Below are positions 22,410 through 43,076 of a stretch of DNA of 64,000 bases, piece after piece. Each line of letters starts with the position of its first letter. The first letter of the stretch is position 1. Made by a program: the position numbers and the translations under genes. Where the stretch lies: positions 17,708 through 81,707 of the IMG/VR virus record IMGVR_UViG_3300028591_006041. One strand, written 5' to 3'. The DNA is from a virus (taxonomy: Duplodnaviria; Caudoviricetes). The notes beneath the pieces were generated by a model. The model worked only from the letters and a program-made list of their open reading frames with translations. It was not told the origin of the DNA and searched no databases.

Positions 22410-22760
22410 ATGAGAAATTTAAATAATTTTATTATAGAAAGACTTAAACTGAATAAAGATACAAAAATACGACAAAGTTTTAGTGAAGAATATTGCATAG
22501 TAGTTCCATTTGAACTTAAGTGGTCTGTTTTTTGTCAAAAATATGAACAATGGTCAATTTGTGGCCATGGAGATTTCAACTTTTTCATTATACCAATAAA
22601 AGATGTTATTGAAAAAACTATTGAACTTAAAAAATATAATGAATCTGTAGAAATCTATAAAATACCTAATAAATATGATAGTTTTGAAGAACTTAAAACA
22701 GATCATAAAAATAAAAAATTTCGTATCCAAGGTGGAAATTTAGAAAATTTAAAAATATGA
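22410..22760 (+). CDS. Leader-family protein (putative internal virion cargo)
   Basis: MRNLNNFIIERLKLNKDTKI. Confidence 0.7.
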   Translation: MRNLNNFIIERLKLNKDTKIRQSFSEEYCIVVPFELKWSVFCQKYEQWSICGHGDFNFFIIPIKDVIEKTIELKKYNESVEIYKIPNKYDSFEELKTDHKNKKFRIQGGNLENLKI

Positions 22761-23068
22761 ATAGAGATGGATATGTTTACTTATTATGTGATGGTGAGAA
22801 ATTCAAAATAGGAATGACTCGTCAATCAAAAATAGAAAAAAGGATATTAGAATTGCAGACAGGTAATCCTAATGAGATATGGTTGCATTCTTATTATAAG
22901 ACAAAATATCCTAATAAAATAGAAAAGATGATGCACAGTAGACATGCATCATCTAATGTAAAAAATGAATGGTTTGATATGACAGTTACGGAAGTATTGA
23001 ATTTTAAGAATGAATGTGCTAAATGTGAAAAAATATTGGATTCAATACAAGAAAACCCATTCATTTAA
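22757..23068 (+). CDS. T5orf172/MUG113 GIY-YIG-like nuclease domain protein
   Basis: GYVYLL..FKIGMT..KRILELQTGNP..IEKMMH..KNEWF. Confidence 0.85.
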   Translation: MNRDGYVYLLCDGEKFKIGMTRQSKIEKRILELQTGNPNEIWLHSYYKTKYPNKIEKMMHSRHASSNVKNEWFDMTVTEVLNFKNECAKCEKILDSIQENPFI

Positions 23069-23072
23069 TAAC

Positions 23073-24278
23073 TTATTTATTGACAGAATTTATTTCCGAT
23101 ATTGAGTTCTTAATGAACTTTTGTTTTCCTATGAAATCTTTTAAAGTAAAACAATTACAATATGACATACAAGACTGTAAATAACTTATCATATTTTTTG
23201 TCCATCTTTTTAATGTAAATTCAATAGGAAGATATTTTGTAATTCCTTCAGCAGTTTTTGTTTTCTCACCGTTTATTGATTTTTGGCCATCTGCAGAAGC
23301 CATTCCAAAAAACTTTACAGTACATTTTCCTAAGTATTGTTCATTTCTTAGATTACGACATCCATTTTCTGTGTAATAATCTTTGGTTCCTCCTGGTGGT
23401 GTATTTGCTATTATAGTATTTATAGCTTCTTCAGTATAATAACCAAAAACTCCACCATTTTCCATTCTTAAAGATTTGAAATCATTTATATTAAAAATAG
23501 TATGTTTGCCATCATATTTTTCTCCAGCAGACTCTAAACATTGTGCAAACAAACTTCCAATCATTACATAATTAGCACCTAAGCCTAATGCTATATTCAC
23601 ATGATTATAATTTCTAATTCCTCCATCTGCGATAATCTTTGGCGCACAAGAATGCTTAAGTTTTATTTTATAGCATTCTTCAATTAATGATGCTTGTGGG
23701 TAATGTGTGCTCACATTAGATGTAGTGATGCAACCGAAACCCCCACCAATGCCTACACGAATATAATCAACAGCAATGTATTTTGATTCAAAATTAAAAT
23801 TACATATCCATTCATATGTAGCTGGATTAGCAATATTTCCTGTCATAATTGTAAGATCATACTTGTAATTATCATAACAGATTATTTTTGCTTCTTCACA
23901 AGCCTCATATAATGATATCATATGACCATTAGCAATATCTACACATATACTATATTGAACATTAAAAAGTCTTTGATGAGCATGCTCAATAAATAAATCT
24001 TTAAATTCGTTTAATGATAAAGCAACCCAAATGCCTTTATTCATTAATCTTATTCTTCTATCTAAATCAATATTTCTTGGGATGATAGGTGTTATTCCAT
24101 TTTCTATAAAAACTTCATAATTCTTATCTGATACTACAGAAGCCATAGGAGCTGTAAATATTGGAAGTCTTTCATCAACAGTAAAAGGATTACATTGACT
24201 TCTTGACTCTACATATGAAATTTTGGCTGGAATAATTGTTAAATCATTATATGCATAACCTTCTTTTTCTAAAATCAT
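23073..24278 (-). CDS. IMP dehydrogenase/GMP reductase family protein
   Basis: PIFTAPM, VDIANGH, RVGIGGGFGCIT, IADGGI, MIGSLFA, FFGMAS. Confidence 0.88.
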   Translation of the reverse strand: MILEKEGYAYNDLTIIPAKISYVESRSQCNPFTVDERLPIFTAPMASVVSDKNYEVFIENGITPIIPRNIDLDRRIRLMNKGIWVALSLNEFKDLFIEHAHQRLFNVQYSICVDIANGHMISLYEACEEAKIICYDNYKYDLTIMTGNIANPATYEWICNFNFESKYIAVDYIRVGIGGGFGCITTSNVSTHYPQASLIEECYKIKLKHSCAPKIIADGGIRNYNHVNIALGLGANYVMIGSLFAQCLESAGEKYDGKHTIFNINDFKSLRMENGGVFGYYTEEAINTIIANTPPGGTKDYYTENGCRNLRNEQYLGKCTVKFFGMASADGQKSINGEKTKTAEGITKYLPIEFTLKRWTKNMISYLQSCMSYCNCFTLKDFIGKQKFIKNSISEINSVNK

Positions 24279-24323
24279 AATATTATTTTTAATAAAATTA
24301 TAAATTTAATATAGAAACATTTC

Positions 24324-24785
24324 ATGAAAAATTTAACTCTATTTATTGCAGAGCGGCTTAAATTGGATAAAGATACTAAAATAAAAGAAAATAATGATGT
24401 ATTAAATTCTATATTAGCTCATTTTGAATTTGATGAATTATTAAACGCAAGTTCAACTTATTTACGAAAAGAACCATTTTTAACTAAAGAAGAAGGTGAA
24501 GAAATAAAATCTAAACTTTTAGAATTCATAATAGATAATAATATAGTAGATGTTAAAAAATTGAAATATTGTACTAATAGAGGAAGAAAGTTTAAAGATA
24601 AGAAAATCAATAAAGATTATAAAAAAGATAATGCATATTGGTCGGCCCTCGATCTTAAATTATATAAAGATAAAGATGCTATTGAAATTTATAAGAAAAA
24701 TGGATTAACTTTTAAAGTTAGTTCAGAAGTCAAATTGATAGCTATGTATGGGCCTTATGGTGGTGTAAAAATATGTGAATTTTAA
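24324..24785 (+). CDS. Leader-family protein
   Basis: MKNLTLFIAERLKLDKDTKI. Confidence 0.7.
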   Translation: MKNLTLFIAERLKLDKDTKIKENNDVLNSILAHFEFDELLNASSTYLRKEPFLTKEEGEEIKSKLLEFIIDNNIVDVKKLKYCTNRGRKFKDKKINKDYKKDNAYWSALDLKLYKDKDAIEIYKKNGLTFKVSSEVKLIAMYGPYGGVKICEF

Positions 24786-24787
24786 TA

Positions 24788-25162
24788 ATGAAAACATTAA
24801 ATAATTTTATAGTTGAACGTCTTAAAATCAATAAAGATACTAAAATATTTAAAATTAGTTTAACTGATGGAGAATTACAAAACTTATATGATGTTTTAGA
24901 AGATTTTTATAATTATGCATATAGTGATCTTTTTAACAAACAAAGTGATAGAGATGAAGCTATGAAATGCTGGAAAAATAGAAAACCTTATGGTTTTTTA
25001 GAAGATGCAAAAACATTTGATGAGGACTTTAGAAATATTATTTCATTTATAGTAGAATATGCTGATGATTATAGTTTAATGAAATCTTTAAGAGATACAG
25101 ATAAAATAATGACTTGTAAACAAATAGAAGATATAAAAAATTATTTTATAGATTTAATATGA
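24788..25162 (+). CDS. Leader-family protein
   Basis: MKTLNNFIVERLKINKDTKI. Confidence 0.7.
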   Translation: MKTLNNFIVERLKINKDTKIFKISLTDGELQNLYDVLEDFYNYAYSDLFNKQSDRDEAMKCWKNRKPYGFLEDAKTFDEDFRNIISFIVEYADDYSLMKSLRDTDKIMTCKQIEDIKNYFIDLI

Positions 25163-25479
25163 AGAATTTAAATGATTTTATATTGGAACGTCTAAAATTA
25201 GATAGAAGTACTAAAATTACTAAAACATCAAGTTCATATAATGCAGAAGACTTTCCAGTAAAAACACGAAAGAACAGTGGTGAAAAATTTCAATGGTTTC
25301 AATGGTGGGAATATGTATTAGATAATGGACCAATAAGTAAATCTGACTTATTGATTAAATTTGGTAAAGAACCAACAAGTTATTCTACAGTATTTGCTGA
25401 TTTATCAAAAAAGAATATTATAGTTCCTCAAAAAAGAAAATTAGTATCAATGCCACCAGAAAAATGGATTATAAAATAA
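25159..25479 (+). CDS. Leader-family protein, possible winged-helix payload
   Basis: MKNLNDFILERLKLDRSTKI; GPISKSDLL..STVFADLSKKNII. Confidence 0.65.
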   Translation: MKNLNDFILERLKLDRSTKITKTSSSYNAEDFPVKTRKNSGEKFQWFQWWEYVLDNGPISKSDLLIKFGKEPTSYSTVFADLSKKNIIVPQKRKLVSMPPEKWIIK

Positions 25480-25531
25480 AACATAAAATTTTATATATAG
25501 AGTGTTTACCAAATAAATTAATTTTTATAAT

Positions 25532-25741
25532 TTGATAGTTAAACCAAGATCAGATTGCAATAAGCATATAATCAGGCGTGAACATTATGCCCGAAAGGAT
25601 GGCCAATGGAAGCCAAAGAAACAATTTGATTCACAAGAAGAATCAGATCAATGGATAAAAAAATATAAACTTTATGGTTATTCTTCATATGTTTGTAAAG
25701 TATGTGGGAAATGGCATATAGGAATGAAAAAGAAAGAATGA
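25532..25741 (+). CDS. Small protein with YxCxxCGKWH zinc motif
   Basis: SYVCKVCGKWHIG; TTG start. Confidence 0.6.
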   Translation: MIVKPRSDCNKHIIRREHYARKDGQWKPKKQFDSQEESDQWIKKYKLYGYSSYVCKVCGKWHIGMKKKE

Positions 25742-26589
25742 GAAATTTAAATCAATTTATTATAGAACGACTTAAACTTAATAAAAACTCTAGAGTTAAA
25801 GATATATTAAGACCAAAGGATTTTTTTGAATTTCAAGAAATAATTGGTAATAAGCTTAAAAATTTAGGTGACAATAAAGAATATTTAGATTTAAAAGATT
25901 TAGATATATCTGACTATAAAGGTTCGGGAAAACAAGATGAACGTTTTGATAGGATTTTGAAAAAATTTTTATCTTCATATAATACAAAATATGATTATAA
26001 TATAAAATATATTGATGTTACAGGATGGGATTTGACTCATATAGATTCTGTAGCAGGACTTTTTCATGCACTCCAAGATATTGAAGAAATTATAGGTATT
26101 GATGATTGGGATATGTCTAATGTAGAACATATTGAATGGATATTTTCCGATTGTGTTAAATTAAAAAATATAGGTAATTTAGGAAAATGGAAATTCAATA
26201 ATTTAAAAAGAGCACAAGGATTTATTTATGGATGTCAACATTTGAAAACTATAGGTGACATATCTAAATGGGATATGTCTAATGTAGATTTTTTAGCTAA
26301 TATGTTTGCTCATTGTTATGATTTACAAGATGTTGGCGAAATAGCTAATTGGGATTTATCATCTTGTATATCTTATAGAAGTATATTTTATTATACCATT
26401 AATTTAAGAAATGTAGGAGATCTTACAAAATGGAATAAATATATAAAATCAAATATTCAAAATATAAAAAACAGATATAATGGATATTTGGATGATGGAT
26501 TTGAAGAAATATTTGATAATTCTGCTGTAGAATATAACTATGAATTAATAATAACTGAAAAAACCGCAAAAATAAAAAAATTAGTATAA
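25738..26589 (+). CDS. Leader-family protein with DUF285-like repeats (start revised from 25702)
   Basis: MRNLNQFIIERLKLNKNSRV at an ATGA overlap; W(D)MSNV repeats. Confidence 0.75.
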   Translation: MRNLNQFIIERLKLNKNSRVKDILRPKDFFEFQEIIGNKLKNLGDNKEYLDLKDLDISDYKGSGKQDERFDRILKKFLSSYNTKYDYNIKYIDVTGWDLTHIDSVAGLFHALQDIEEIIGIDDWDMSNVEHIEWIFSDCVKLKNIGNLGKWKFNNLKRAQGFIYGCQHLKTIGDISKWDMSNVDFLANMFAHCYDLQDVGEIANWDLSSCISYRSIFYYTINLRNVGDLTKWNKYIKSNIQNIKNRYNGYLDDGFEEIFDNSAVEYNYELIITEKTAKIKKLV

Positions 26590-27050
26590 TGAGAAATTTA
26601 AATCAGTTTATTGTTGAAAGACTTAAAATTAATAAAGATACTAAAGTCAATCCGTATGAGTTTTCTGATGAAGAATTAATGAAAGATTATAATGAAATAT
26701 CATATGCTTATACTAAAGCAGAAAAAATGCCTATAGCTAAAAAGTATGGTATTACAACAATAAGAATAAAAGATATTCAACAAGCTATTTTAATAAAACT
26801 TAGAGATAATCGTCATATTAAAAAAGATTTTACAGAAGATGATGTTCGTAATTTTTTCAGATTAGATGTTCCAGAAAGATATAATAGAATGAAAGAATAT
26901 TTAGATCAAGAATCAACAGAATTTATAGAATATTTATTAGAACATCTTAAAGAAAAAGCCAAGAAAATACGATATCCATATTTGAGTTATGCAGATAAAA
27001 CATTATTGAATAGAATTAAAAATATTGAGAAATATTTAAATGAAAAATAG
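26589..27050 (+). CDS. Leader-family protein
   Basis: MRNLNQFIVERLKINKDTKV. Confidence 0.7.
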   Translation: MRNLNQFIVERLKINKDTKVNPYEFSDEELMKDYNEISYAYTKAEKMPIAKKYGITTIRIKDIQQAILIKLRDNRHIKKDFTEDDVRNFFRLDVPERYNRMKEYLDQESTEFIEYLLEHLKEKAKKIRYPYLSYADKTLLNRIKNIEKYLNEK

Positions 27051-27058
27051 ATAGTTGA

Positions 27059-27700
27059 TTACCAACTATCTATATTTGTTATATTATATATGAAATCTTC
27101 TACATAAATATCAAAAATCCATCCTAATCCTGTACCAGTTATTTTTATTGTTAATGGTTGTTTATATTCATTATAGATTTCCATAAATCTGTAAAATTCT
27201 ATTTTATCAAATTTAGGATAATGAAATTTCTTGTTAGTTATTTCTACTGATGAATTTATGCATTTATCCTTTTCTTCACAATCTAAACATTGTACATATT
27301 CAAAATTACATCTTGGAAGCATTAGTTCTTCTTGGTTGTAATTTATCTTATAAACTAATTCAAATCCACCTCCAATTGTTCCGAATTTATTCATTCCATT
27401 TTCTTTTCTAACACATGAGCTATGTTTTTTCTCAAAATTCGATATTTGTTGAAGTTGTAATGAATCAAGTTTGAACAATTTATATGCATACTTATCCCAG
27501 AAAAATTCAGTTATTCTATCTCTTAATTGATTGATTGTCTTAATATTTATGTAATCATATTTCTCTCCAATATGTCTTGAAAAATTAAGTACTTCACCAT
27601 TTTTATCTATTAAATACTCTTGAGCTAAATACTCATAATTATTTATATTACTGAAAAAATTTCCTGCGTTTCTTGTGTTGTCAATAATTATTGTTTTCAT
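27059..27700 (-). CDS. Hypothetical protein
   Basis: 213-aa ORF. Confidence 0.6.
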   Translation of the reverse strand: MKTIIIDNTRNAGNFFSNINNYEYLAQEYLIDKNGEVLNFSRHIGEKYDYINIKTINQLRDRITEFFWDKYAYKLFKLDSLQLQQISNFEKKHSSCVRKENGMNKFGTIGGGFELVYKINYNQEELMLPRCNFEYVQCLDCEEKDKCINSSVEITNKKFHYPKFDKIEFYRFMEIYNEYKQPLTIKITGTGLGWIFDIYVEDFIYNITNIDSW

Positions 27701-28083
27701 AACTTCTTTACATTTTTAGTTTTTTCATCCAATTCATATCCTGCCTTTTTCATTCCTTTAAATAACATTTGTCGTTCTTCATTTGATGATAAATGATAGT
27801 CTTTTTTATCATAATCATCAACAAACCCCATACTGGCGCTAGAACCATCATTATAATAAATATCTTTTTTACTATCATAATATCCTATATATCTAACTAA
27901 TTTACCATAAGGTTGCCTATCTTCAAACTTATCAAATATGAATATCAATAAATGATTTTTATCATTTATATAATACGTTGTTATGATATCACCCTTTTTA
28001 GCATCTTTAATTGAGTATGAAGACAATTTAGAATTTTTATTTAGTTTTAGACGTTCATTTACAAATTCATTGATTTTTTTCAT
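27697..28083 (-). CDS. Leader-family protein (minus strand)
   Basis: MKKINEFVNERLKLNKNSKL. Confidence 0.7.
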   Translation of the reverse strand: MKKINEFVNERLKLNKNSKLSSYSIKDAKKGDIITTYYINDKNHLLIFIFDKFEDRQPYGKLVRYIGYYDSKKDIYYNDGSSASMGFVDDYDKKDYHLSSNEERQMLFKGMKKAGYELDEKTKNVKKL

Positions 28084-28118
28084 AGATTATTTCATTAATT
28101 TATAATTAAAAATAATTC

Positions 28119-31100
28119 CTAAAATGGCACCTCGTTGCCAAATAAATCTAACTTATTGTCATTATTGTTTTCTTCATTCTCATCATTCTCATTTTCTATG
28201 CTAAATATGTCATCTTTAAGTTTGTTTGTATTCTTTTGCTTAATCATAAATCTGTTATTTGAATTATCCTTTTCACTGTAATCATAATAATCAAATTCCT
28301 TATGTACAATATTTGGCAATTCACTAATGATATCTTCTAATTTGACCTTTGATGTATGCTCAAAATCTTTGAGTTCTTCTTCTACGTCATCTTTATTATT
28401 ATCTTTTATATTATTTTCATCTATTAATTGTTCTAAGAAGAATGTCTTTGTATTTATATCACCATAAATATTGATTACATCCAATTTTGATTCCCATAAT
28501 AACTCAAATGGCTTAATGTTTATTTTTCCATTTTTTGGCCTACTTTCAACAATTATTATTTTCCAATAATCTTGAATTATGTCAAATATCTTAGAAGCAT
28601 ATTCAATATCATCAATAACAACATCTTTAATAGAATTGCAATATTTACATGACCATTCTGCCAAAAACATATCAATATCTCCTCGAGTTGTTTCAGGATT
28701 TTCTTGTGCCCAATTCTTACAATCATATAAGAATCTCATTATTGGAAAATCCAAACGTTTTTTCTTTCTGTTATTTTCAATATTGACAAACATTCTTATT
28801 CTGTTAAGTTTTGAAAAATTCAAACGATTAGATTTCAAATCAATACAATAATCATAGATTTCTCGAATTCTGTCACAATCATATGTTTTGTAAAGACTTA
28901 ATATTATTGGTACATGTTTTTCAAGAATCTCAATATCATCAACATATAAGTCATTTTCTTCTCTTATTCTCTTATTGTCTTCATCAGTATCTTTATATAT
29001 TGAATAATTTCCTTTCAATAATTCTCTATATAAGTCAATATTTCCATCAGATACATGACTAAGAAGTTTTCTAACTTTTATAGTATCTTCATTGAATTTA
29101 ACATTTCGACAAGCCTTCATGAATTCTTCTAATTCTTCAACTTTATCTTCAGGAGTTTCTTTATCACTTTTCGATATTTTGACATCATATCCATAATATT
29201 TGATTCCATTAATCATAACATTCAATTGTTTAGAATATTCAGAATATCTTTCTTCAAATACCTTCAATTTATAAGTAGTCTCATCAATATAATATTTGCA
29301 ATCATTCTCATCATATTTAAGATATTTGTTTGTACTAAGTAATGAGCTTATAATTGGATTATATTTTGATTCTTCATAGTTTCTTTCTAACATATCATTA
29401 CAAGTCTTAACTAAATCTCTTGCTGTCATCAAATCATTTTGACTAAAACTTAAGTCAAGTGGTTTAATATAATCATAATTCAATGGTAATCCATTTTTAT
29501 CGAATAATGGTAAATATATCTTAATATGTAAATTATTGTTTCTAATCCTATTTGCGAATTGTTCAATATCTTGAGGAATCCAAGTCTCATTGAAATATAT
29601 TACAAAATCATAAGGATCACAAATATCTACTCCTACACTTAAATAAGTTGAACAAAATATTATATCATTATTTCCAATTGTCTTATTTATGTTTATATTA
29701 TCCATTGACTCTTCACCATATTGTGATTTCTTATAATAGAATTTTTTCAGTTCTCTTGGAAATTCCATTTCATTCAATATTTTTTGAATCATTCCGGTTA
29801 TTTGCTCATAATATAATATTCCGCGATTTGTTGGAAATAATATTTTTTTACCTTCTTTTATATTTTGTGCCATATCTACACACATGTCTCTAATTTGTTC
29901 TGTAGATGATGGTACTAAATTGATTATGCATTCTTTAACTCTTAAGTCTTCCTTTTTCACTTTAATATGTTTGATATTTGGAAAGAATAGCATTTCTCCT
30001 GTTGGTGTTCCACTCATCATAATTATCTTAGCTTTACAATTTGCTAAACGTTGAATACATGGTCCCATAACTTCTCGATAAGATGATGTAAACAATAAAT
30101 GAGACTCATCTATAACTATATATTTGAAATTTGCGGCATCCAACTCATAAACATTCAAATGAGAAAACTTATCAATAGTCATAGACATATTTTGATTTCC
30201 CATAATGTCACTTAATGTAGGTTTTTTATTTCCATAAAAATACAACCAATCTTTTGTTACACTTGATGCTTCAACTTTAGCTTTAATAGTTGATGTGAAT
30301 GGTAATATAAGTAATGTTTTGTCTTTTAGAGACTTAATCATTTCTGTCTTACCATATCCTGCACCTGCCTCTAATAGAGTTATATGATCCAAATTTTTCA
30401 CAATTTCATCTTTTATGTCACTAAGATATTGATCTTTAGTAATTGTCAATATTGTTTGATTTGTTTTATCATTCAATATTTTTATTGGATCAATTTTATT
30501 GTCTAAATTTTTTATCTCATTTTCTATTTGAGTTAAGTTGACATTATCAATATCTTTCTTAATCTTTATATTGAATCCATGTTGGTTATTAAGCTCATTG
30601 ATAGCCCAAGTTGTCATTGGTTTATGATGTATTGCTGCAGTCTTTATATCTCCTTTCAATTCCCTCATAGATACATCTTTACATATACTGCATATTATCT
30701 TAAATGCTTTTTGTTCACCAAATAATGATGTAAGAGTATTAGCCAATTGCCATCTATGGAAGTGTTTGTAGTGTTTGCTACCTTTTGACTTACTTAAATC
30801 ATAATTTATGTCTTTATCAATATTTTCTAATTCAATATTTGTACTATCATTGAAGTCATCATTACTAAACCAATCCAATTTACTAAATATGTTTTTCAAA
30901 TCAGGATGAGATATCCAATTTATTGACTCAACACCATTGTTCAAAGCTGACTCAAAGTTGATATCTAATCTTAAATCATTGAAATTAGTTGAAAGATAAG
31001 CATTGTCTGAAGATATGAATATACCCTGTTGAGGTTTACCTACAGCCATATCCATATAATTGTATATAGATTCTTTGTTATATCCATATTTGTCACAATA

Positions 31101-31742
31101 TTTCAATAACATAATATATACATAAGAATACTTATGCCTAAAATTGCATAGATATTCAATTCTTCTGTTCTCATATTTCACAGTTATTGGAGTTATCTTT
31201 GTCCAAACATGAAGAGATTTCTTAGATGCTGACCTACATATTCCTAAGAACCAATGAAATTTTGACAAATCATTAAACAAATCATCTTTCAACTCATTAG
31301 ATATGTTCTCATCTTTTATATCCAAGTCAATAATTTGAAGACCATTCCACATTTGATAAGCTATATCTCCAATTGGACGATTATTTGATGAAGTTGGAAA
31401 TACCATATTACGATGAATCTTATCTATTTTTGAATAATCCTCATCATACATTAAATCATAAATTTCTTTCCAATTGAATATTCTACCAACTTTATCATAT
31501 ATAGAATTTACAACCAAACATTCTATCAATTGTAGTTGATCATTATAGAATTCTTGTTGTTCTTCTTTAGAACATTTATCAAATAATATGTTTGAATATT
31601 TGTTTAAGTTTGAATTATAATCTATATTTATGTTTTCTTTAGAAATACAACTAAATGATTCTAAAATTTCAGATAATGACTTATTCTTAGTATTATCATA
31701 TAAGCTATTTATTTTCTTTATACCGTTATTCAAAACTGTCAT
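28119..31742 (-). CDS. Primase(VirE-N/AEP-like)-SF2 helicase fusion
   Basis: WNGLQIIDLDIK..SASKKSLHVW; AGAGYGKT, VIDESH, MSGTP, STYLSVGVDI. Confidence 0.75.
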   Translation of the reverse strand: MTVLNNGIKKINSLYDNTKNKSLSEILESFSCISKENINIDYNSNLNKYSNILFDKCSKEEQQEFYNDQLQLIECLVVNSIYDKVGRIFNWKEIYDLMYDEDYSKIDKIHRNMVFPTSSNNRPIGDIAYQMWNGLQIIDLDIKDENISNELKDDLFNDLSKFHWFLGICRSASKKSLHVWTKITPITVKYENRRIEYLCNFRHKYSYVYIMLLKYCDKYGYNKESIYNYMDMAVGKPQQGIFISSDNAYLSTNFNDLRLDINFESALNNGVESINWISHPDLKNIFSKLDWFSNDDFNDSTNIELENIDKDINYDLSKSKGSKHYKHFHRWQLANTLTSLFGEQKAFKIICSICKDVSMRELKGDIKTAAIHHKPMTTWAINELNNQHGFNIKIKKDIDNVNLTQIENEIKNLDNKIDPIKILNDKTNQTILTITKDQYLSDIKDEIVKNLDHITLLEAGAGYGKTEMIKSLKDKTLLILPFTSTIKAKVEASSVTKDWLYFYGNKKPTLSDIMGNQNMSMTIDKFSHLNVYELDAANFKYIVIDESHLLFTSSYREVMGPCIQRLANCKAKIIMMSGTPTGEMLFFPNIKHIKVKKEDLRVKECIINLVPSSTEQIRDMCVDMAQNIKEGKKILFPTNRGILYYEQITGMIQKILNEMEFPRELKKFYYKKSQYGEESMDNININKTIGNNDIIFCSTYLSVGVDICDPYDFVIYFNETWIPQDIEQFANRIRNNNLHIKIYLPLFDKNGLPLNYDYIKPLDLSFSQNDLMTARDLVKTCNDMLERNYEESKYNPIISSLLSTNKYLKYDENDCKYYIDETTYKLKVFEERYSEYSKQLNVMINGIKYYGYDVKISKSDKETPEDKVEELEEFMKACRNVKFNEDTIKVRKLLSHVSDGNIDLYRELLKGNYSIYKDTDEDNKRIREENDLYVDDIEILEKHVPIILSLYKTYDCDRIREIYDYCIDLKSNRLNFSKLNRIRMFVNIENNRKKKRLDFPIMRFLYDCKNWAQENPETTRGDIDMFLAEWSCKYCNSIKDVVIDDIEYASKIFDIIQDYWKIIIVESRPKNGKINIKPFELLWESKLDVINIYGDINTKTFFLEQLIDENNIKDNNKDDVEEELKDFEHTSKVKLEDIISELPNIVHKEFDYYDYSEKDNSNNRFMIKQKNTNKLKDDIFSIENENDENEENNNDNKLDLFGNEVPF

Positions 31743-31831
31743 TAAAAATATAATTAATTAAATATAGTTAACTATTTGACAAAGATTCCTATTAAAAATA
31801 TTTTTTATTTCGATTATTTTTTATGATTTTA

Positions 31832-32242: not shown

Positions 32243-33121
32243 ATGCCTTGCAATACAATTAATCAAAAAATAAATAACATTAATATTGATGAAACTCAAA
32301 ACAATTCTTCTCAATCAATGGAAGAATTTTTGAAACTAAAACAACAACAAGAAGATCAAGTTGACTATCAATTCATACAAAGAATAATTCAAGAATTGAC
32401 ACAATCATGTGCATTACCTCTTCCAATTCCTGCAGCTTCAATTCCACCATTGATTATTCAGGCTGCTCAATGGTTTTGGGCTAATGATGATAGAATGATT
32501 AATGAAAGATATTTTGTAGTTCGTAATAAAGATTTTTGTAGGAAATGCAGTAATACAATTATCAAATTACCACCTCAAATTCTTAGTGTATTTGGAGTAT
32601 ATAAAGTTCATCCTAATTATTATTATGGAGCAATGGGAGATTTTTCACTTGAACGTATGGTAATTAATAATACTGTTTTAGCTTCTGGCGCAGGTGGATC
32701 ATTATCAGATACTTATGGAATGGGAACAGGATATAACCTTACCGATATGATGGCAGGGCTCTATGAAATACAAACTTTTAAAGCTATGTTTGATGTTCCT
32801 TTGACATTCAATTACAATGAATTTTCAAATGAGTTAGTAATACTTGGACAGTTAGGAGTTTCTGATGTAGTATTACAAACATTTACAAGATGTAAAATTC
32901 AAGATATGTATAAAGATTATTATTTCTTTAGACTTTGTGTATGTTTTGGATTAAGAAGTATGGCTACTATTATGGGTGCTTTTGAGTTTAGATTACCCGG
33001 TGGTACTACAATAAACTATTCTACATTTAGAGAAATGGCTGAAACTGAAATAGATAAGATAGAAGAATGGGTAGTTAAAAATCATTCTACTGACTATTTC
33101 TTCAATTCGAATACAATTTAA
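32243..33121 (+). CDS. Neck/head-completion protein (T4 gp13-like)
   Basis: C-terminal FRLPGGTTINY...AETEIDKIEE matches the recalled gp13 LPGGV motif; class B-like motif at 32211. Confidence 0.7.
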   Translation: MPCNTINQKINNINIDETQNNSSQSMEEFLKLKQQQEDQVDYQFIQRIIQELTQSCALPLPIPAASIPPLIIQAAQWFWANDDRMINERYFVVRNKDFCRKCSNTIIKLPPQILSVFGVYKVHPNYYYGAMGDFSLERMVINNTVLASGAGGSLSDTYGMGTGYNLTDMMAGLYEIQTFKAMFDVPLTFNYNEFSNELVILGQLGVSDVVLQTFTRCKIQDMYKDYYFFRLCVCFGLRSMATIMGAFEFRLPGGTTINYSTFREMAETEIDKIEEWVVKNHSTDYFFNSNTI

Positions 33122-33206: not shown

Positions 33207-33212
33207 AAGAAA

Positions 33213-36200: not shown

Positions 36201-38369
36201 AATTGGTAAGAAATAAGTTTGCCAATAATATTTAAGGGCATCTAATTTAAGCGCCATTTCAGTAAATATGAATCTATAATAAGGTTTATAGAATGATATG
36301 TCATCATGAACAACTTCTACATTTTTCTTAAATAAATCTTCTAATATAGGTTTTCCTTCACCTATTAATTGATTAGAATAATTTTGATCATATTTTTCTC
36401 CTGTCTCAATATTGCCATTCATTGTTAAGGAAATAAGATTTGTAGTATTAAAATATTTGAAGGTAGATTTCATATCATTCTCAACATTGAAATAATCTAA
36501 TACATATTGGTCAAATATGTCATTATCTGTTTTCAATAATTTGCTAATTGTTAAATGATTATGCCATCCAAACCATTTAAGTGAATTTATTACTGATTTG
36601 AAATTTCCACATTCTCCTTTTATTGACATATAATTCATTAATAGCTCTTTCATTTTTTGTTTTAAAAGTTCTTCATTAGGATATAAAGATTCAAAAGAAC
36701 TATCATAGAATGCTCTTAATATGTCTTTAGGTAAATTAATACCCATATTTTTTCCATTAATTATAAGTGGTTCACATTCATCAACAAAAGTGCAACCAAC
36801 AGTAATAGGTGTATATTTTGTTTTATATACATATTCTTCTATTTCAATTGTATCATTAGTTAATTGACTTATTATAGAATTATCTACATCAAACCAAATA
36901 TCTCTTATCGCATCATTATACAAATATTGAGTTGGTTTAAGTTCTAAACTATAACCACCATTTTCATCTCTTGGAAAAATTTCATGATTTCTGTATTGAC
37001 TAAATTCTGTCGATTTAAAGTCATATTCTATTCCATCATATTCATATCTTGTAAATGTTGTTTCACCGTCCTTTTGATTACCGCTTTCATTTATAATTTT
37101 ATGTTTTTCTGTAAAAAATTTACCACCATATACTGGAAAAAATTGATCATAATATATACGTTTAACTGTTTCAATCAAATTATTCATTGTGTTTTTATAT
37201 TCACTGGCTGCATCAGGACCAACCATTGTAATCCACCATTCACCATTAGAATATTCCATCATATCATATGATGTAATAGGAATGTCATCATCATAACTAT
37301 ATGAAATACTTAATTTATATTGTTTTCCATCATATTCAATAATATTTTCATCTGCAATTTCTTGTAAGCTTTTTACATTTACATTTAAAGATTCAATATT
37401 AGGATATTCATCATAAATTAAATATTCTTTATTATATCCATTGCTTGGATATGAATTGTTACCATCATAATTTATTCTTAATACACTTCCACATTCTCTA
37501 CATCCATATTTTATTTTTCCAATAAATTTATATTTATCATCATTTTTCAACCATTTGTTTTTAGGTAATTTAAATATGATTTGATATATATCATTAGGTA
37601 AATTTGACCAAAAATTTATTCTGAATTTTTGATCAGGAACATTAGCATCATTAGAATCAAATTTAGTAGATAATATTTTATTATTGTTTTTATATAATAT
37701 TTCTACTGATTCTGGATTAAATTCATTTTTGATAGTATACCACTGTTCATAATTATTAGAATTTTCATTATATTTAAGAATATTTATATTGGAAAATGTT
37801 TCTTTAATTATTTTATTGAATACTTGTTCTTTTGTATATACTACTGTTTTCTTTTCTTCTGTTTTTGAATTTATCTTAATCATTATGTTTGAAAGATAAG
37901 TACCCTCAAACTTAGATCTACCTATAACATAAAATGGAAATAAATAAAATTTCTTACCTTTATCCTCTACAATTAAATTTTGTGTATTATCATAAAAATC
38001 AAAATAAAAATCATCTAAAGTCAATATAGTCTTACATTCATTAAAATCAATTAATAAGCTTTCATTAATATTTGATTTTTGTTCTAATTTTTCTTGTATA
38101 TATTTTGGACCAATTAATTTAAACACACTTGATTGAATGCTTATTTCAATATCAAATGGTTTTGTCAAATGATCATTTTCATCTTCTTCAAATGATATTT
38201 CATTTTCGTTAATTATAAATCTAATTGGTTTTATATAAAAATTATTTACAGAAACTTCATTATCTTTTAACCAAAATATATAATCATTTTCTTTATATTT
38301 ATATAAAACAGGATTATCATCATATGTTTGTAAACTAAAAACATGTCCTGTACTATCTATGAACTCCAT
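33237..38369 (-). CDS. Large virion protein (baseplate wedge-like) with C-terminal DUF1566-like domain
   Basis: YMSIKGECGNFKSVINSLKWFGW baseplate-type motif; C-terminal AVACAWRY..GDWFIPS..FFTST. Confidence 0.55.
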   Translation of the reverse strand: MEFIDSTGHVFSLQTYDDNPVLYKYKENDYIFWLKDNEVSVNNFYIKPIRFIINENEISFEEDENDHLTKPFDIEISIQSSVFKLIGPKYIQEKLEQKSNINESLLIDFNECKTILTLDDFYFDFYDNTQNLIVEDKGKKFYLFPFYVIGRSKFEGTYLSNIMIKINSKTEEKKTVVYTKEQVFNKIIKETFSNINILKYNENSNNYEQWYTIKNEFNPESVEILYKNNNKILSTKFDSNDANVPDQKFRINFWSNLPNDIYQIIFKLPKNKWLKNDDKYKFIGKIKYGCRECGSVLRINYDGNNSYPSNGYNKEYLIYDEYPNIESLNVNVKSLQEIADENIIEYDGKQYKLSISYSYDDDIPITSYDMMEYSNGEWWITMVGPDAASEYKNTMNNLIETVKRIYYDQFFPVYGGKFFTEKHKIINESGNQKDGETTFTRYEYDGIEYDFKSTEFSQYRNHEIFPRDENGGYSLELKPTQYLYNDAIRDIWFDVDNSIISQLTNDTIEIEEYVYKTKYTPITVGCTFVDECEPLIINGKNMGINLPKDILRAFYDSSFESLYPNEELLKQKMKELLMNYMSIKGECGNFKSVINSLKWFGWHNHLTISKLLKTDNDIFDQYVLDYFNVENDMKSTFKYFNTTNLISLTMNGNIETGEKYDQNYSNQLIGEGKPILEDLFKKNVEVVHDDISFYKPYYRFIFTEMALKLDALKYYWQTYFLPIHIKIKRASINYKVYANTIKLTSNPMILNTATPIFVTNDNIRVEFPSYNKLLFYKSQHYIDSNFNEFSNYNENYSNEDLYLINENCIYIPIRIIDNNSLYSEYEYGNYIKTSYGEYMKIYKLFSSKLDNNTISLEETNDLKLATHFRVSKYDKTIYAFKDIETNEILYNRYTKISSGLFKCKLILSCIKRTQSDTGKYIYIDGKYKYKDKFYNQFIDDFTLENNIYYENIKRNYVDYNGKCIYVDKKDRYDIESHILVEDNDFIFYQTPENYFNNYIILPRYLNKKNNLSKMDWLNCEYRLSVFVNNKWFYYDFTINVPSIYLEFGKLKYQYYLKDEISMFKQLSQQHPNLIFNSFMYQPNLVSIDTLFYDKDTDNVLTFIEKLADIKDKNDEDNDNTNRRMQEFYLRYYKNKIQIPYNKNYFNKIHLFELYDKSTNQKVQYDGNPFNQELYDDLFENTNFKGIIEEAVQYDAYLMHDNPNITEDGKIPYWYIVFISRYPIGNYNDDSLLELQKTEYVFDNYKIRYTGYNTQKFLVNRMNVIPTNGLNHFNKNDLVVVGVYNNDLQFNIDLNTKWEISKIYDTKYNLNVYQNTNLAIINNNNMDGFYDPGYYDVRLNYTISGLDGYQYETKAIYKINNNIESIYYPKIKEYVIPKESYNINTVISDFKIMYENNNGERIYTTNILDPSIGYHPIGIKVVNANYFEEGSPALYMGLTRLSLFNPDHGRTEIGAETINERPYFGMSGHYIDGLPGYTKICFYNETGTSSSTHLCPQTDIALYDNGSPRPWCNSDGTPRWPAPNNRMWTRDPSVRNNCCINILNDDDTFNTNMFDNNCALSNWNGLENNRIIIDNFDENLYPNWRTEQYSSDHPMPNPKDKKFSPAVACAWRYHTVSTNQGDWFIPSVPNVLFMMFNFKKYSDIFLELTSHDEYKPYCKSDLLSGNGNTFFTSTPSPSSNTTLWDIHMFGVCHVFVKDADWESIPYIFINE

Positions 38370-38443
38370 ATACCTAAAATATTTATATATAATTAAAAAT
38401 AATTAGTTTATTTTTAATAAAGCATAAATTTGTTATTTTACGT

Positions 38444-39469
38444 ATGAAAAGTTTTAAAAAGACTTATATAATTAACGAGAATGTCAACGGTATAAATGGG
38501 TTTGTCATTCTTAAACCTGAATTCTTAAATCATAAAGAAAATTTTTTGAAAATGTTATCAAATAATGGATGGCAAATAATTCAAAAAAATGAAAGAACAT
38601 TATCTTTAGAAGAAGCCAAAGAACTATATAAGATGCATAGTAAAAAGGATTTCTATAATGACTTATGTAAGTATATGAGTTCTTCTAATTGTTTATGTTG
38701 TTCATGTCATAAGGATTGTAAAGATCCTATTAAAGAAATGAATGATTTGAAAGATAAGGTTCGTAAGACTTGGGGTAAAGATGAGATGAAAAATGGAATG
38801 CATTCATCTGACTCATTAGAAAATGTCAATAGAGAAAGTAAGTTGATATTTGAAAAGAAATTTACAGAAGAAATGGACATTAAAGTAACTACAGAACCTG
38901 ACACATTTGTAGATTTATTTGATAATGTAAAATTTTTAGATGAGCCACAACAACCAATTTCTAAAGTTCAATCTAAATGTGTTGAATTAGGAATAAGCAT
39001 GAATGATGAAGAATTTGAAAAATTGAAATTTATGCTTAGCAATGCATTGGCTGAAGAATTCAATGCTTGGTATGCTTATACTATAATCATTCCATTCTTA
39101 TATGGTCCACTACGTCCAGATGTTGTTGAGTTCTTTAAAGAAACAGCTAAAGATGAGTTAGAAGATCATGCTTATTGGTTGATGGAAAGACTTAATCAAT
39201 TAGGAGTAGAATTGAGTAATGTTTCTGATCCAGCATTTTGGAATACTGTAGCTACTCATAAATACATTTATCCTACTAATGACACTTTAGGTGCAATTCA
39301 AAACAATATCAAAGCAGAACAAGGAGCTATAGAGACTTATACTAAATTAGAAGAATTTACAAGAGATAAAGATGTTGTAACGAATTGTAAGATAAAGGAA
39401 ATACTTAAAGATGAACAAGAGCATTTGTCAGATCTTTATGATTTGAGAAAAGATATAACTAATTTTTAA
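38444..39469 (+). CDS. Nucleoside diphosphate kinase - ferritin/Dps-like fusion
   Basis: ILKPE..AKELYKMH..FYNDLCKYM..HSSDS (NDK); AEEFNAWYAY..DELEDH..EQGAIETY..DEQEH (ferroxidase helices). Confidence 0.85.
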   Translation: MKSFKKTYIINENVNGINGFVILKPEFLNHKENFLKMLSNNGWQIIQKNERTLSLEEAKELYKMHSKKDFYNDLCKYMSSSNCLCCSCHKDCKDPIKEMNDLKDKVRKTWGKDEMKNGMHSSDSLENVNRESKLIFEKKFTEEMDIKVTTEPDTFVDLFDNVKFLDEPQQPISKVQSKCVELGISMNDEEFEKLKFMLSNALAEEFNAWYAYTIIIPFLYGPLRPDVVEFFKETAKDELEDHAYWLMERLNQLGVELSNVSDPAFWNTVATHKYIYPTNDTLGAIQNNIKAEQGAIETYTKLEEFTRDKDVVTNCKIKEILKDEQEHLSDLYDLRKDITNF

Positions 39470-39472
39470 TTT

Positions 39473-40063
39473 ATGGCAGATTTAGAAAAACGTTTTTTCA
39501 TAACTAATTCTCATAGTGATTATGAAACTTTTATAAATGATAACATCTTTGAAAGAGAAACATTGATATATGATCAAGAACATCTTCATTATAATAAACC
39601 AACAAAAATTCCATATTTGGAATCTAATTTTTATAATGGATATGATGGACAATTAGGAGCTAAAGATATCTTTGAAACATTAGAATCATTTTATAATGAT
39701 TATAATAAAAATTATAATAATCAGTTTAATGTTAATAATAGTGCATATTATTATTTTTTGTTAATGACTGAGTCAGAATATAGTGAGGTATATGGTAACA
39801 TATATAGTAAATTATCTGATTATATAAAACAACATAATTCAAATGCTAGTTCTAATTTTAATTTACAAAATTATGAATCTTCATATGGTGAAAGTTATTA
39901 TAATCTTTATTTAAGATGTAATACTATAGGAACAGGATATCATGAAGTTAATGGTGGTAGAGGTTATCTTTCTGGTTATTATTTAACTGTAAAAGATACA
40001 TTAACAAATGAAACTTTACAAGAAGTATTTTTAGGATACGTTGTGGAAGGTTTTTATAATTAA
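39473..40063 (+). CDS. Hypothetical protein (Asn/Tyr-rich)
   Basis: 196-aa ORF in operon. Confidence 0.55.
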   Translation: MADLEKRFFITNSHSDYETFINDNIFERETLIYDQEHLHYNKPTKIPYLESNFYNGYDGQLGAKDIFETLESFYNDYNKNYNNQFNVNNSAYYYFLLMTESEYSEVYGNIYSKLSDYIKQHNSNASSNFNLQNYESSYGESYYNLYLRCNTIGTGYHEVNGGRGYLSGYYLTVKDTLTNETLQEVFLGYVVEGFYN

Positions 40064-40085
40064 ATAAACTGTTTAAATTATTTAT

Positions 40086-40838
40086 ATGAAAAATTTAAAT
40101 CAATTCATTATAGAACGTCTTAAGATTACTAAAGATTCTAAGTTTTCTAAAGCTAAATTAGATAGAAGTTTTATAGATATATTAAGTTATGTAATTAATG
40201 ATTTTGAGGGTAAACGATTTAGTGCAAGATATTCATTAGAATTTTTATATAATATTTTCTGTGAAGCTATGTCAGAATCAGCAGAAGTAATACATTATGC
40301 ATATGATAAAAAAGGAAAACGTATACAAAGTGATATGCAAATGTGTACTATTAAAGCTGGTAAAAATTTATTTCATATTAAAGAAGATAATTATGGACAA
40401 TTAGAATTCGATGATAATGATAAATGCCTTGATATATGGGGAAGTGGTAGAGGAAGTGAAGTATATTTTGGTGTATGTCTTATAGAAGATGTATTCAATA
40501 AATCTATTCATTTTAAAATAAAAGAAGATCAAATTGATTTATCAGATATTAAGAATATATTTGGTATAGAAGATGAATCAAAATTTAAAATTGATATTAG
40601 AGTTTATAATGTTAATGGATGGAAAGTTTATGTTGGAACAATACATAAAAAGAATGCAACAAGTTTGTCAAATTACATACATACAACTGTTGTATTACCG
40701 AATAATAATACATATAAAAGTTATTATTATTGTGATGGGGCAGGAATGACTGGTTCTGATGATCATTATTCAGGAAATGATGAAAATGACTTTAAAGATA
40801 GTATAAAAAAACTAATAGAAAATCATTTACACTTATGA
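40086..40838 (+). CDS. Leader-family protein
   Basis: MKNLNQFIIERLKITKDSKF. Confidence 0.7.
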   Translation: MKNLNQFIIERLKITKDSKFSKAKLDRSFIDILSYVINDFEGKRFSARYSLEFLYNIFCEAMSESAEVIHYAYDKKGKRIQSDMQMCTIKAGKNLFHIKEDNYGQLEFDDNDKCLDIWGSGRGSEVYFGVCLIEDVFNKSIHFKIKEDQIDLSDIKNIFGIEDESKFKIDIRVYNVNGWKVYVGTIHKKNATSLSNYIHTTVVLPNNNTYKSYYYCDGAGMTGSDDHYSGNDENDFKDSIKKLIENHLHL

Positions 40839-41371
40839 AAAATATTGTACAATATATAACTGAAGCAATTAAAGATGTTGATCAGCAAATAATTGAAATA
40901 CTTAATTTTTATGCCAAAAATATGTCTGGTGTTCAACAAGAACTATATAAGCAAAAAATAAAAGATGCTGATTCTGTTGATATAGTTCCATTATCAGAAG
41001 TATTTTCTGAAGAAGAAATTGAAGATATTGAACGTATAGTCAGACCTCAACCAAAATGTTGTTATGAGAATGCATGGAAATTATGTGATAGGTTATCTTA
41101 TGGAAAACATGACATAAAATATTGCGAAGGATATCTTAATATGAGAGGACTTCCTATAGATCATGCATTCAATAAAGTTGATGGAAAATATGTAGATATT
41201 ACTATTGAATTAGCTTTAAATAAAGACATATCAAAAGAAGAAGATACTTATGTGATTATTGGAGAATATGATGACAATCAAGTTAGAGAAATATTGCTTC
41301 AAAATGGATTCTATGGAGATATCTATAATACAATATTTTTGAATAAATATAAAGAAAACGTTAAGAAATGA
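40835..41371 (+). CDS. Short-leader protein with transglutaminase/papain-like Cys-His-Asp triad
   Basis: MKNIVQYITE; CCYENA, EGY..PIDHAFN, YVDIT. Confidence 0.6.
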   Translation: MKNIVQYITEAIKDVDQQIIEILNFYAKNMSGVQQELYKQKIKDADSVDIVPLSEVFSEEEIEDIERIVRPQPKCCYENAWKLCDRLSYGKHDIKYCEGYLNMRGLPIDHAFNKVDGKYVDITIELALNKDISKEEDTYVIIGEYDDNQVREILLQNGFYGDIYNTIFLNKYKENVKK

Positions 41372-41880
41372 GAAACTTAAATCAATTTATTACAGAACGA
41401 CTTAAACTTACTAAAGATACAAAAGTATTTAATGATTATGAAGGTTTAGCTGAGAAAATGGTAAATTATGTTTGGCCAATAACTTATGAAAATGATCAAG
41501 ATGATATGAAAGAACATAAAAAATATGTTGAAGAAATAACAGAAATATTTAAGAAAAATGCAATTGTTGAAATTTCTAAACCAATGTACGGAGGTATGGA
41601 CGGTTTAAAGGATTCACTATATGGATTAAATATTGATAAAGATATAGCTAAACAATATGGATTTAAAATGTCAGATTATAAAGAAGCACCAATTCCAGAT
41701 ATTCAACATAATACAAAAATTAATTTAGATGATTTAGAAGATGAAGATAATGATAATTATATATTAATGAATGATTCAAATTTATGCTATACAATTTATG
41801 GTGATTTTTCAGGAAAAAAGAATTTAATCATATTTTATAATTCTAGTGCAGATTATGCATTTATATTTTACGTAAAATAA
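41368..41880 (+). CDS. Leader-family protein
   Basis: MRNLNQFITERLKLTKDTKV. Confidence 0.7.
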   Translation: MRNLNQFITERLKLTKDTKVFNDYEGLAEKMVNYVWPITYENDQDDMKEHKKYVEEITEIFKKNAIVEISKPMYGGMDGLKDSLYGLNIDKDIAKQYGFKMSDYKEAPIPDIQHNTKINLDDLEDEDNDNYILMNDSNLCYTIYGDFSGKKNLIIFYNSSADYAFIFYVK

Positions 41881-41892
41881 GTTTTATTAAAA

Positions 41893-42438
41893 ATGAGAAA
41901 TTTAAATAATTTTATATTAGAACGTCTTAAGTTAAATAAAGATACTAAAATTGATGACAGTAAATACTGTATATCATTAGATAATTTCATTAAGAAATAT
42001 GATTTAGAATATAATGGAGAAACTATACATAATGGAATGACAGAATATAAAGTTCCGAGAGAAAAACCATTATGGAAAATTGTTAAGAAAAATAATTCTT
42101 GGGAATATTGGACAGAATCTATAAATCATATTGAATCAGAATTCAATATTGATAAAGATAAATGGAGGATCAATATGAGTACTCCTGATGAAAGACGTGT
42201 AAGTTTCTTTATACAAAAATATATTTTTAGTAATGATCCGTGGACAACTATATCATTTGTAAGATTTGTTGATAAAGACTTAATAAAAATGGCAAATGAT
42301 CCAGATTGTTATTTAGAATATTTTGTAGAAAATAATCATTATATTTTAAATGCATGTAAAATATCTAAAGATGAATTTCAATGGATAGAAAGAGTATTAT
42401 TTACATGGATAGATTGGTTTATAGAAAAATGTAAATGA
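41893..42438 (+). CDS. Leader-family protein
   Basis: MRNLNNFILERLKLNKDTKI. Confidence 0.7.
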   Translation: MRNLNNFILERLKLNKDTKIDDSKYCISLDNFIKKYDLEYNGETIHNGMTEYKVPREKPLWKIVKKNNSWEYWTESINHIESEFNIDKDKWRINMSTPDERRVSFFIQKYIFSNDPWTTISFVRFVDKDLIKMANDPDCYLEYFVENNHYILNACKISKDEFQWIERVLFTWIDWFIEKCK

Positions 42439-42467
42439 ATTTATATACAATAAAATTTATTTTAATT

Positions 42468-43076
42468 ATGAAAAATTTAAATCAATTCATTATAGAACGA
42501 CTTAAACTAAATAATAACAGTAAAGCAGATATTTATAATTTTTTTCCTAAATCTGCAATTGAATTAAATAATTTAGTAGAAAAATTATTGAATGAAAGAG
42601 GACCTGATGCAGATTTAAATGATATAAATGTATCTAATGTTCCTGATTTTAATTATTCTCCTGAAGATAAAATAAAATATGATTTAGAACTTGATTTTGG
42701 AATATTCTCTAATTTAGATCCTCACAACATTAAAATAGATAAATGGGATGTGCGTCATATTACAGATATGTCAAATATGTTTTTTAATTGTTATAATTTA
42801 GATTGTAATTTAAATAATTGGAAAACAACTAATCTTGAAAATATATCTTATATGTTTTATGAATGTAAAAGATTTGATTCTAATTTAAGTAATTGGGATG
42901 TTAGAAATGTTTTATATTGGGCAAATGCATTTGAAGGATGTATAAATTTTAAGGGTAAAGGATTAAATCAATGGAATCCAGAAAAATTAAAATATGGATA
43001 TCATTGGGATATGTTTAAACAATGTAAAAAAATAAGAAAAAAACCACAATGGTATATTGATAAAATAATAAATTAA
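42468..43076 (+). CDS. Leader-family protein with DUF285-like repeats (start revised from 42435)
   Basis: MKNLNQFIIERLKLNNNSKA; LNDINVSNV, KWDVRHITDMSNMF, NLSNWDV. Confidence 0.75.
   Translation: MKNLNQFIIERLKLNNNSKADIYNFFPKSAIELNNLVEKLLNERGPDADLNDINVSNVPDFNYSPEDKIKYDLELDFGIFSNLDPHNIKIDKWDVRHITDMSNMFFNCYNLDCNLNNWKTTNLENISYMFYECKRFDSNLSNWDVRNVLYWANAFEGCINFKGKGLNQWNPEKLKYGYHWDMFKQCKKIRKKPQWYIDKIIN

Follow-up and report, generated by a model that had tools for sequence, protein, structure and literature searches.

The closest described parallel to the system considered here is found in phage T4, whose internal proteins have only a leader in common; this leader binds the scaffolding core and is removed by the gp21 protease through a cut after glutamate (PMC8442874, PMC5694885, PMC3012670, PMC12373910). 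In the T4 capsid-targeting sequence (CTS), MKTYQEFIAE, a single cut adjoins the CTS (PMC8442874), and cleavage after Glu is also exemplified by ITE-6 in Alt (PMC5694885). Two other head-loading systems bear comparison. The heads of the giant phiKZ-like phages (SPN3US, phiKZ, 201phi2-1) take up dozens of proteins, which a gp21-related protease processes behind Glu, but these phages use long propeptides without a common leader, an [A/S/G]-x-E motif and a protease of family S80 (PMC5694885, PMC7411985). In phage P1, a myovirus, an N-terminal peptide of DarB is by itself enough to direct a protein into the head, but neither a consensus leader nor a cleavage motif is described there and the cargo is a single large protein (PMC9024508). 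The DNA analysed here is a stretch of 64,000 nucleotides (the window), bases 17708-81707 of the 81.7-kb IMG/VR virus record IMGVR_UViG_3300028591_006041 (G000; CheckV completeness 29%), in which eleven open reading frames (ORFs) open with one and the same leader, M-[KR]-x-[LI]-N-x-F-[IV]-x-E-R-L-K-[LI]-x-K-[DN]-[ST]-K, and continue into bodies that cannot be aligned. Judged from sequence and gene context, this leader is probably a T4-type, protease-cleavable head-loading tag of this phage lineage. The type of tag is known from T4; what is new is its conserved nine-residue extension, the scale on which it occurs, its position between portal and protease genes and its genome-specific dialects.

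A conserved leader on unrelated payloads

Among the window leaders, M1, F7, E10, R11, L12 and K13 are invariant and L4, N5, I8 and K19 are conserved at 90% or more; an alignment of the eleven proteins has a mean column identity of 21%, nearly all of it contributed by the leader. Searched with a degenerate DNA pattern that covers residues 7-19, the window gives 9 matches and 100 shuffles give 0, and there are no extra leader copies in the 17.7 kb of the record that lie 5' of the window. All eleven starts at which an earlier note on this DNA had described a common leader followed by divergence are thereby confirmed. A profile scan of the kind proposed in that note, made here with the first 30 residues against 1.84 billion cluster representatives (E <= 0.001), retrieves 140 protein clusters (50% identity), essentially all of them matched at the N-terminus: 135 match at residue 1 and five begin 4-19 residues in. 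The resulting logo is M-K-[N/T]-[L/I]-N-x-[F/Y]-I-x-E-[R/K]-L-K-[L/I]-N-K-D-[S/T]-K-[I/V], with M1 invariant, E10 present in 138/138 and I8 in 126/138 (91%), and L12, K13 and K19 above 90%. Once the leader is stripped off, the payloads of 128 clusters fall into 86 groups without a BLAST link.

A scan of JGI metagenome contigs adds at least 119 AT-rich loci (588 kb; GC 19-43%, nearly all 19-35%) with at least 285 leader genes, which encode 30-306 aa and number up to ten per 8-kb locus. They are arranged in tandem on one strand (187 tagged-tagged neighbour pairs share a strand vs 1 pair on opposite strands; median gap -1 nt), and the core motif lies six residues after a Met in 71 of 72 cases. 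Sorted by payload, 332 tagged genes make up 167 groups, the largest of which, with 52 genes, has DUF285/BspA-type payloads; such payloads account for 10 of the 140 profile clusters. Neither megablast of the region nor tblastn of the 20-residue consensus finds anything in 50,697 phage records, and two DNA-pattern scans of IMG/VR return an unrelated MKSLKQFITES protein from 40%-GC contigs but no genuine copy of the leader. Four unrelated viral contigs of IMG/VR (L003-L005 and L007, ~40% GC) encode a 204-aa protein that starts MKSLKQFITESLK beside T4-like tail genes; it may carry another lineage's short T4-like tag.

The actual unit is a ten-residue tag, M-K-x-L-x-x-[FY]-I-x-E, of which the 20-residue form is the commonest extension. 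The pattern M-[KR..]-x-[LIFMV]-x-x-[FYH]-[ILVF]-x-E starts 358 of the 1011 gene calls of the record and the scanned loci, a sample biased toward long leaders, but it follows just 5 of 3879 internal Met residues, a control drawn from within that same sample; 267 of the 358 tagged calls have the [R/K]LK[L/I] extension and 91 lack it. Its identity with the T4 CTS reaches 7/10 (for example MKTLQNFINE in related contigs), and the window leaders have M1, K2, F7, I8 and E10 in common with this CTS, that of 24788 also T3. E10 and I8, the two best-conserved positions after M1, take the places of P1 and P3 in the (I/L)-x-E motif at which cleavage occurs in T4. Proteins of relatives that carry the short tag include NDK (domain from residue 18), a HAD-type hydrolase and a 189-aa ADP-ribosyltransferase (PF03496, 1.3e-15, domain from residue 27) with its R, STT and QEE motifs.

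Other classes of N-terminal element were considered and set aside. The leader, an amphipathic and charged helix, contains no hydrophobic h-region of a Sec/Tat or lipoprotein signal, and a secretion signal was rejected for want of this hydrophobic core. A polymorphic-toxin N-domain was rejected since 19 residues are too short for one and no MuF, Rhs or LXG match is present. Encapsulin cargo-loading peptides, which bind inside the shell of an encapsulin with a nearby gene, offer an analogy only, being usually C-terminal whereas the tag is strictly N-terminal; general family scans, which included no search aimed at encapsulins, turned up no encapsulin gene.

The tagged genes of the window are the following:

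Leader gene 1: 22410..22760 (+), 116 aa; leader = residues 1-19; small alpha/beta body
Leader gene 2: 24324..24785 (+), 153 aa; heads operon 24324-27050
Leader gene 3: 24788..25162 (+), 124 aa; N-terminus MKTLNNFIVE
Leader gene 4: 25159..25479 (+), 106 aa; start overlaps the stop of leader gene 3
Leader gene 5: 25738..26589 (+), 283 aa; DUF285 repeat body (PF03382, 3.3e-22)
Leader gene 6: 26589..27050 (+), 153 aa
Leader gene 7: 27697..28083 (-), 128 aa; most divergent leader, MKKINEFVNERLKLNKNSK; beta-barrel body
Leader gene 8: 40086..40838 (+), 250 aa
Leader gene 9: 41368..41880 (+), 170 aa
Leader gene 10: 41893..42438 (+), 181 aa
Leader gene 11: 42468..43076 (+), 202 aa; DUF285 body (PF03382, 2.3e-23)
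Short-tag gene: 2170..2799 (+), 209 aa; MRCLKDFILE only; no family match
Short-tag gene: 40835..41371 (+), 178 aa; MKNIVQYITE only; within operon 38444-43076
NDK-ferritin fusion: 38444..39469 (+); loosened tag MKSFKKTYIINE
365-aa gene: 61699..62796 (-); loosened tag MKKFSNYNKIIKE

Tagged genes make up 13 of the 83 genes of the record (~16%). Searches of the eleven bodies against Pfam and PHROGs found DUF285 alone, on two of them. The two short-tag genes had been described as enzymes carrying only the first ten residues; the tag is there, while the enzyme label finds no family match behind it. The looser versions reported at 38444 and 61699 are backed by related contigs, where the homologues have the canonical ten-residue tag: it stands on NDK homologues at L022:3834-4256 and L076:10201-10620, and L121:874-1884, which starts MKRFSTYVNE, is the apparent counterpart of 61699-62796, with a common ...VNPGN after the tag noted without formal alignment. 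The genes at 25738 and 42468 likely start at the leader Met and not at an in-frame ATG further 5'; the former is in an ATGA overlap with a preceding zinc-ribbon ORF (25532-25741).

Several proteins of the family depart from the simple arrangement. NDK seems to be an N-terminal module joined to varied C-terminal domains: its partner is ferritin/rubrerythrin-like in the window (38444-39469) and consists of DUF285 repeats in relatives (e.g., L065:9952-11067), where NDK-DUF285 fusions form a cluster of 17 neighbouring genes. Among the profile clusters, P0011, P0158 and P0205 have unrelated payloads and a common leader with a partial internal duplication, FILEHLECPKLSI[IL]ERLKL, a 10-residue insertion; in P0019 and P0179 the second half of the leader is duplicated, and in P0218 this second half, FMTEKLNINKDTK, occurs mid-protein, apparently because two cassette genes were fused.

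Genomic setting of the tagged genes

The box TTATTTTTA[AT] occurs in 25 copies in the record, 15 of which are intergenic, correctly oriented and 32-41 nt 5' of a start codon. It precedes all leader operons (22410; 24324-27050; 28083-27059; 38444-43076), as well as the neck gene, the 1710-, 2848- and 979-codon genes and a BspA-LRR gene. The copies in front of the leader operons, with the neck gene as an example of a virion gene behind the same box, are:

22377..22386 (+): late-type promoter-like box TTATTTTTAA, 33 nt 5' of leader gene 1
24283..24292 (+): late-type box, 41 nt 5' of the 24324 operon
28106..28115 (-): late-type box, 32 nt 5' of leader gene 7
38408..38417 (+): late-type box, 36 nt 5' of the 38444-43076 operon
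32243..33121 (+): neck / head-tail adaptor gene, behind a TTATTTTTA[AT] box

Further sites in the window include 32210, 38402(-), 44434, 54749 and 62830(-). A second box, ACTATATT, precedes DnaK, a 1207-aa helicase, an IMPDH-like gene and the Ro60 operon; its window sites include 6490(-), 16245(-), 22347(-), 24315(-), 31768(-), 44400(-) and 54732(-), and these seven lie 26-52 nt 5' of a start, five of them at 33-41 nt. The first box is thus that of virion-type and leader genes and the second that of replication, metabolism and Ro60 genes; going by the motif, the genes behind the first would be expressed late. The earlier note had placed the leader clusters behind the same motif as neck, tape-measure and fibre genes, which is borne out for all leader operons and the neck gene; the tape-measure and fibre labels find no family matches.

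The AT-rich window (GC 23-36%) derives from a giant phage, since the neck / head-tail adaptor encoded at 32243..33121 (+) has its relatives in jumbo phages (PAU, PTm1 and MA9V) and in uncultured phages of 462-636 kb, and since near-identical proteins occur on 140,632-bp and 428,112-bp contigs of other collections. Its other nameable genes encode helicases, Ro60/TROVE-vWA, a double RimK ATP-grasp protein, BspA-type LRR proteins and the NDK-ferritin fusion. The Ro60/TROVE-vWA protein (window 14137-15834) lies in DNA of higher local GC (36%), and the ATP-grasp protein (window 11-2173) is 720 aa long and has two RimK-type domains.

The 81.7-kb record, at 29% completeness, shows no Peptidase_S77 protease, portal or capsid gene; the linkage of the tag to these genes therefore rests on related contigs. 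Peptidase_S77 scores above the Pfam cut-off in two related contigs that bear the tag. In one of them (L027), behind nine consecutive tagged genes stand, in this order, a 227-aa gene, the gene of a 570-aa Peptidase_S77 protein (5348-7060), a Gp23-type capsid gene and a sheath gene; the catalytic domain of the Peptidase_S77 protein is 51% identical to that of the PTm1 "prohead core scaffolding protein and protease". In the other (L063), a tagged gene stands immediately 5' of the protease gene (11455-13113), after which comes the capsid gene. On three further contigs, a Portal_T4 gene is followed by one (L052), one (L087) or four (L131) tagged genes and then by a baseplate-V-type gene, and in a fourth (L056) the slot after the portal gene holds no tagged genes. 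Standing after the portal gene or before the protease and capsid genes, the tagged genes therefore occupy a variable slot inside the head-assembly module. The order in PTm1 is portal, one hypothetical gene, protease-scaffold, capsid; the T4 genes between portal and protease are the prohead-core genes 67 and 68.

Two observations concern the neighbours of this slot. A conserved 225-258-aa protein follows it in every case (L131:1378-2055, L052:2749-3447, L056:4029-4805, L087:8034-8741) and gives a weak match to the Phage_base_V OB domain, which makes it an unusual neighbour of a portal gene. The Gp23-type capsid proteins L027:7191-8912 and L063:9498-11282 begin MFINE or MFITE (F-I-x-E); this is not counted as evidence for the tag, since the PTm1 protein has no Glu at the aligned position.

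Helix, dialects and rival readings

Structure prediction of the payloads, likewise proposed in the earlier note, was carried out with AlphaFold for the families of 28083 and 22410, from 10 and 12 sequences, respectively, and gives a helix, a linker and a globular body in both cases. The leader is a single detached helix (pLDDT 45-56) followed by a low-confidence linker to about residue 21-23 and a confident body: the helix spans residues 2-16 in leader gene 7 (residues 12-21 at pLDDT <50; body 79-96) and residues 5-17 in leader gene 1 (pLDDT ~50-55; body 77-89). In these models, the leader lies outside the payload fold; the division of the leader into two decamers made in the earlier note may be artificial, both halves being predicted within one helix. 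Compared with the Protein Data Bank by Foldseek, the two models give nothing below E = 0.06; the weak resemblances of their bodies are to Tudor/SH3-like and ferredoxin-like folds.

Leaders are more alike within a locus (67% identity) than between loci (54%). F7 and R11 are found in 11/11 leaders of G000, whereas nearly all other loci have K11 and mostly Y7, and position 14 is usually all Leu or all Ile in a given locus, regardless of payload. Such dialects, and the odd leader common to P0011, P0158 and P0205, could reflect co-evolution with a single receptor, recombination that homogenises the leaders, or the two together. The idea that a common 5' cassette promotes payload swapping by recombination draws indirect support from the dialects, from a 32-nt run that is identical in two leaders and from the variable slot after the portal gene. 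The gene directly 3' of leader gene 1 (window 22757-23068) encodes a T5orf172/MUG113 protein, related to GIY-YIG, which may be a mobile nuclease able to help move cassettes.

This raises the question as to whether it is the nucleic acid that is conserved, as a cassette for translation initiation or recombination that yields the peptide as a by-product. Leader DNA is 78% identical on average, with the 32-nt identical run as its longest (40086 vs 42468), the arrays are tightly coupled, as their median gap indicates, and the T5orf172/MUG113 gene sits within one of them. Invariant residues are nonetheless written with several codons: R11 in the window uses AGA, CGG, CGT and CGA, position 14 draws on five codons for Leu and two for Ile, and where two leaders have the same residue, the codons differ in 27% of the pairs. 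The sequence 5' of leader genes is unrelated except where the promoter box is present, and the profile finds the peptide across loci over the whole GC range given above. Synonymous variation of this kind means that selection acts on the leader peptide and not on its DNA; a DNA-level cassette, rejected on the codon data, is largely refuted already and its probability is very small.

The principal rival to the T4-type reading takes the leader as an uncleaved docking helix, which would plug interchangeable binding modules (DUF285/LRR, lectin-like, barrel) onto a site of the virion such as head fibres, neck or tail, so that a variable set of adhesins would be displayed and the payloads would not be internal cargo at all. 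Branched tail-fibre systems provide a precedent, with one conserved N-terminal anchor on many divergent late receptor-binding modules. These anchors are not known to be cut, and their payloads are fibres or depolymerases, with no NDK or ADP-ribosyltransferase enzymes known among them. The predominance of DUF285/BspA-type repeats among the payloads, the late-type boxes, the proximity to virion genes and the inclusion of all 19 residues in one conserved helix all suit such a helix, and genome-specific dialects would suit a single docking partner. The payloads, however, go beyond binding or fibre modules: an ADP-ribosyltransferase, NDK and HAD enzymes carry the tag, and it is not obvious what they would do on the exterior of the particle; residues 11-19 are entirely missing from the short-tag proteins; the best-conserved positions after M1, E10 and I8, make up exactly the T4-type cleavage motif; and the arrays lie between portal and protease genes, not among tail-fibre genes. 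On balance, the docking helix is unlikely.

The next rival removes the leader from the virion altogether and makes it an intracellular address or handling signal, whether for recognition by the phage's own DnaK/DnaJ chaperones, for degradation or timing, or for localisation to a compartment of assembly or replication. DnaK (645 aa) and DnaJ (360 aa) homologues are indeed encoded just 5' of the window, together with a small adjoining gene and all on the minus strand (G000 ~3700-7400), and a hydrophobic core flanked by Lys/Arg would make the tag resemble generic Hsp70-binding peptides. Metabolic enzymes such as NDK are tagged, and a sixth or so of the genes of the record is much for head cargo. 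A handling signal nevertheless offers no reason for the invariant Glu10/Ile8 pair or the likeness to T4, nor for arrays inside the head-gene module, and all tagged operons stand behind the virion-type box. It is accordingly the more doubtful of the two, and improbable.

A probable T4-type head-loading system in giant phages

In the T4-type reading, the tagged proteins would be made late, alongside virion proteins. Residues 1-19 would form one amphipathic helix on a flexible linker, and this helix would bind the scaffolding core, contributed by the protease-scaffold fusion protein, during prohead assembly. The gp21-type serine protease would then cleave after the invariant Glu10, with Ile8 at P3, and free the cargo inside the head, from which it would exit with the DNA at the next infection. 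The reading is preferred because the ten-residue tag resembles MKTYQEFIAE and places E10 and I8 at P1 and P3; because related tag-bearing contigs hold Peptidase_S77 and have tagged genes between portal and protease/capsid genes; because one tagged payload is, like the packaged Alt of T4, an ADP-ribosyltransferase; and because the leader genes stand behind the same late-type box as the neck gene. The dialects are also accounted for, as a shared receptor would produce them. On these points the CTS interpretation of the earlier note gains independent support.

The likeness to T4 extends to the skeleton M-K-x-x-x-x-[F/Y]-I-x-E that ends in (I/L)-x-E, to payloads that are small, otherwise unrelated, with the leader alone in common and subject to cassette-like gain and loss, to expression that would be late, with the head genes, and to a lineage that has a gp21-type (Peptidase_S77) protease together with gp20/gp23-type portal and capsid genes. 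The differences are equally marked. Most copies here add an equally conserved nonapeptide, [R/K]LK[L/I]xK[D/N][S/T]K, which T4 lacks; the scale is far larger; the payloads are acidic, while T4 IPI-III are small and highly basic; and the arrays lie between the portal gene and the gene of a protease that is fused to a long scaffold-like tail.

Several findings weigh against this reading. The median payload pI of 5.3-5.4 equals that of untagged proteins, so that the two sets cannot be told apart by charge, whereas the internal proteins of T4 are basic. Glu10 is predicted mid-helix, and residues 11-19 are conserved as strongly as residues 1-10; neither is explained by a simple tag that marks where to cut. 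NDK and a HAD hydrolase are odd head cargo, and the commonest payloads are DUF285/LRR-type binding modules, which elsewhere belong to surface proteins. The record itself has none of the protease, portal and capsid genes on which the reading relies. Finally, the protease occurs in PTm1, which by its neck protein is the closest relative in culture, and in the 462-kb phage LR756500, but the leader profile and the short-tag pattern find no tag in either; the tag is thus not a general feature of the protease clade, and its likeness to the T4 CTS could be convergent.

A bipartite leader is a more speculative elaboration of the T4-type reading, to which we give little credence at present. Residues 1-10 would serve targeting and cleavage, and residues 11-19 ([R/K]LK[L/I]NK[D/N][S/T]K) would be kept on the cargo as a basic N-terminus and a second address; with the same low probability, this address might tether acidic cargo to DNA, set the order of ejection or act in the host. 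If true, there would be two classes of cargo, short-tag enzymes and long-tag binding modules, and about one-sixth of the genome would be a deliverable protein kit.

Should the tag function as its T4 counterpart does, the sequence would directly reveal which proteins a whole AT-rich, uncultured lineage of giant phages packages and probably injects. Hundreds of payload families, mostly of unknown function, would become candidate host-takeover and anti-defence proteins, including the ADP-ribosyltransferase and many repeat-type binders, and the T4 head-loading mechanism would operate at a far larger scale in giant phages. The tag would also give protein-packaging applications another natural leader besides that of T4, one that has a conserved extension, and the extension and the dialects offer a route to its receptor on the scaffold.

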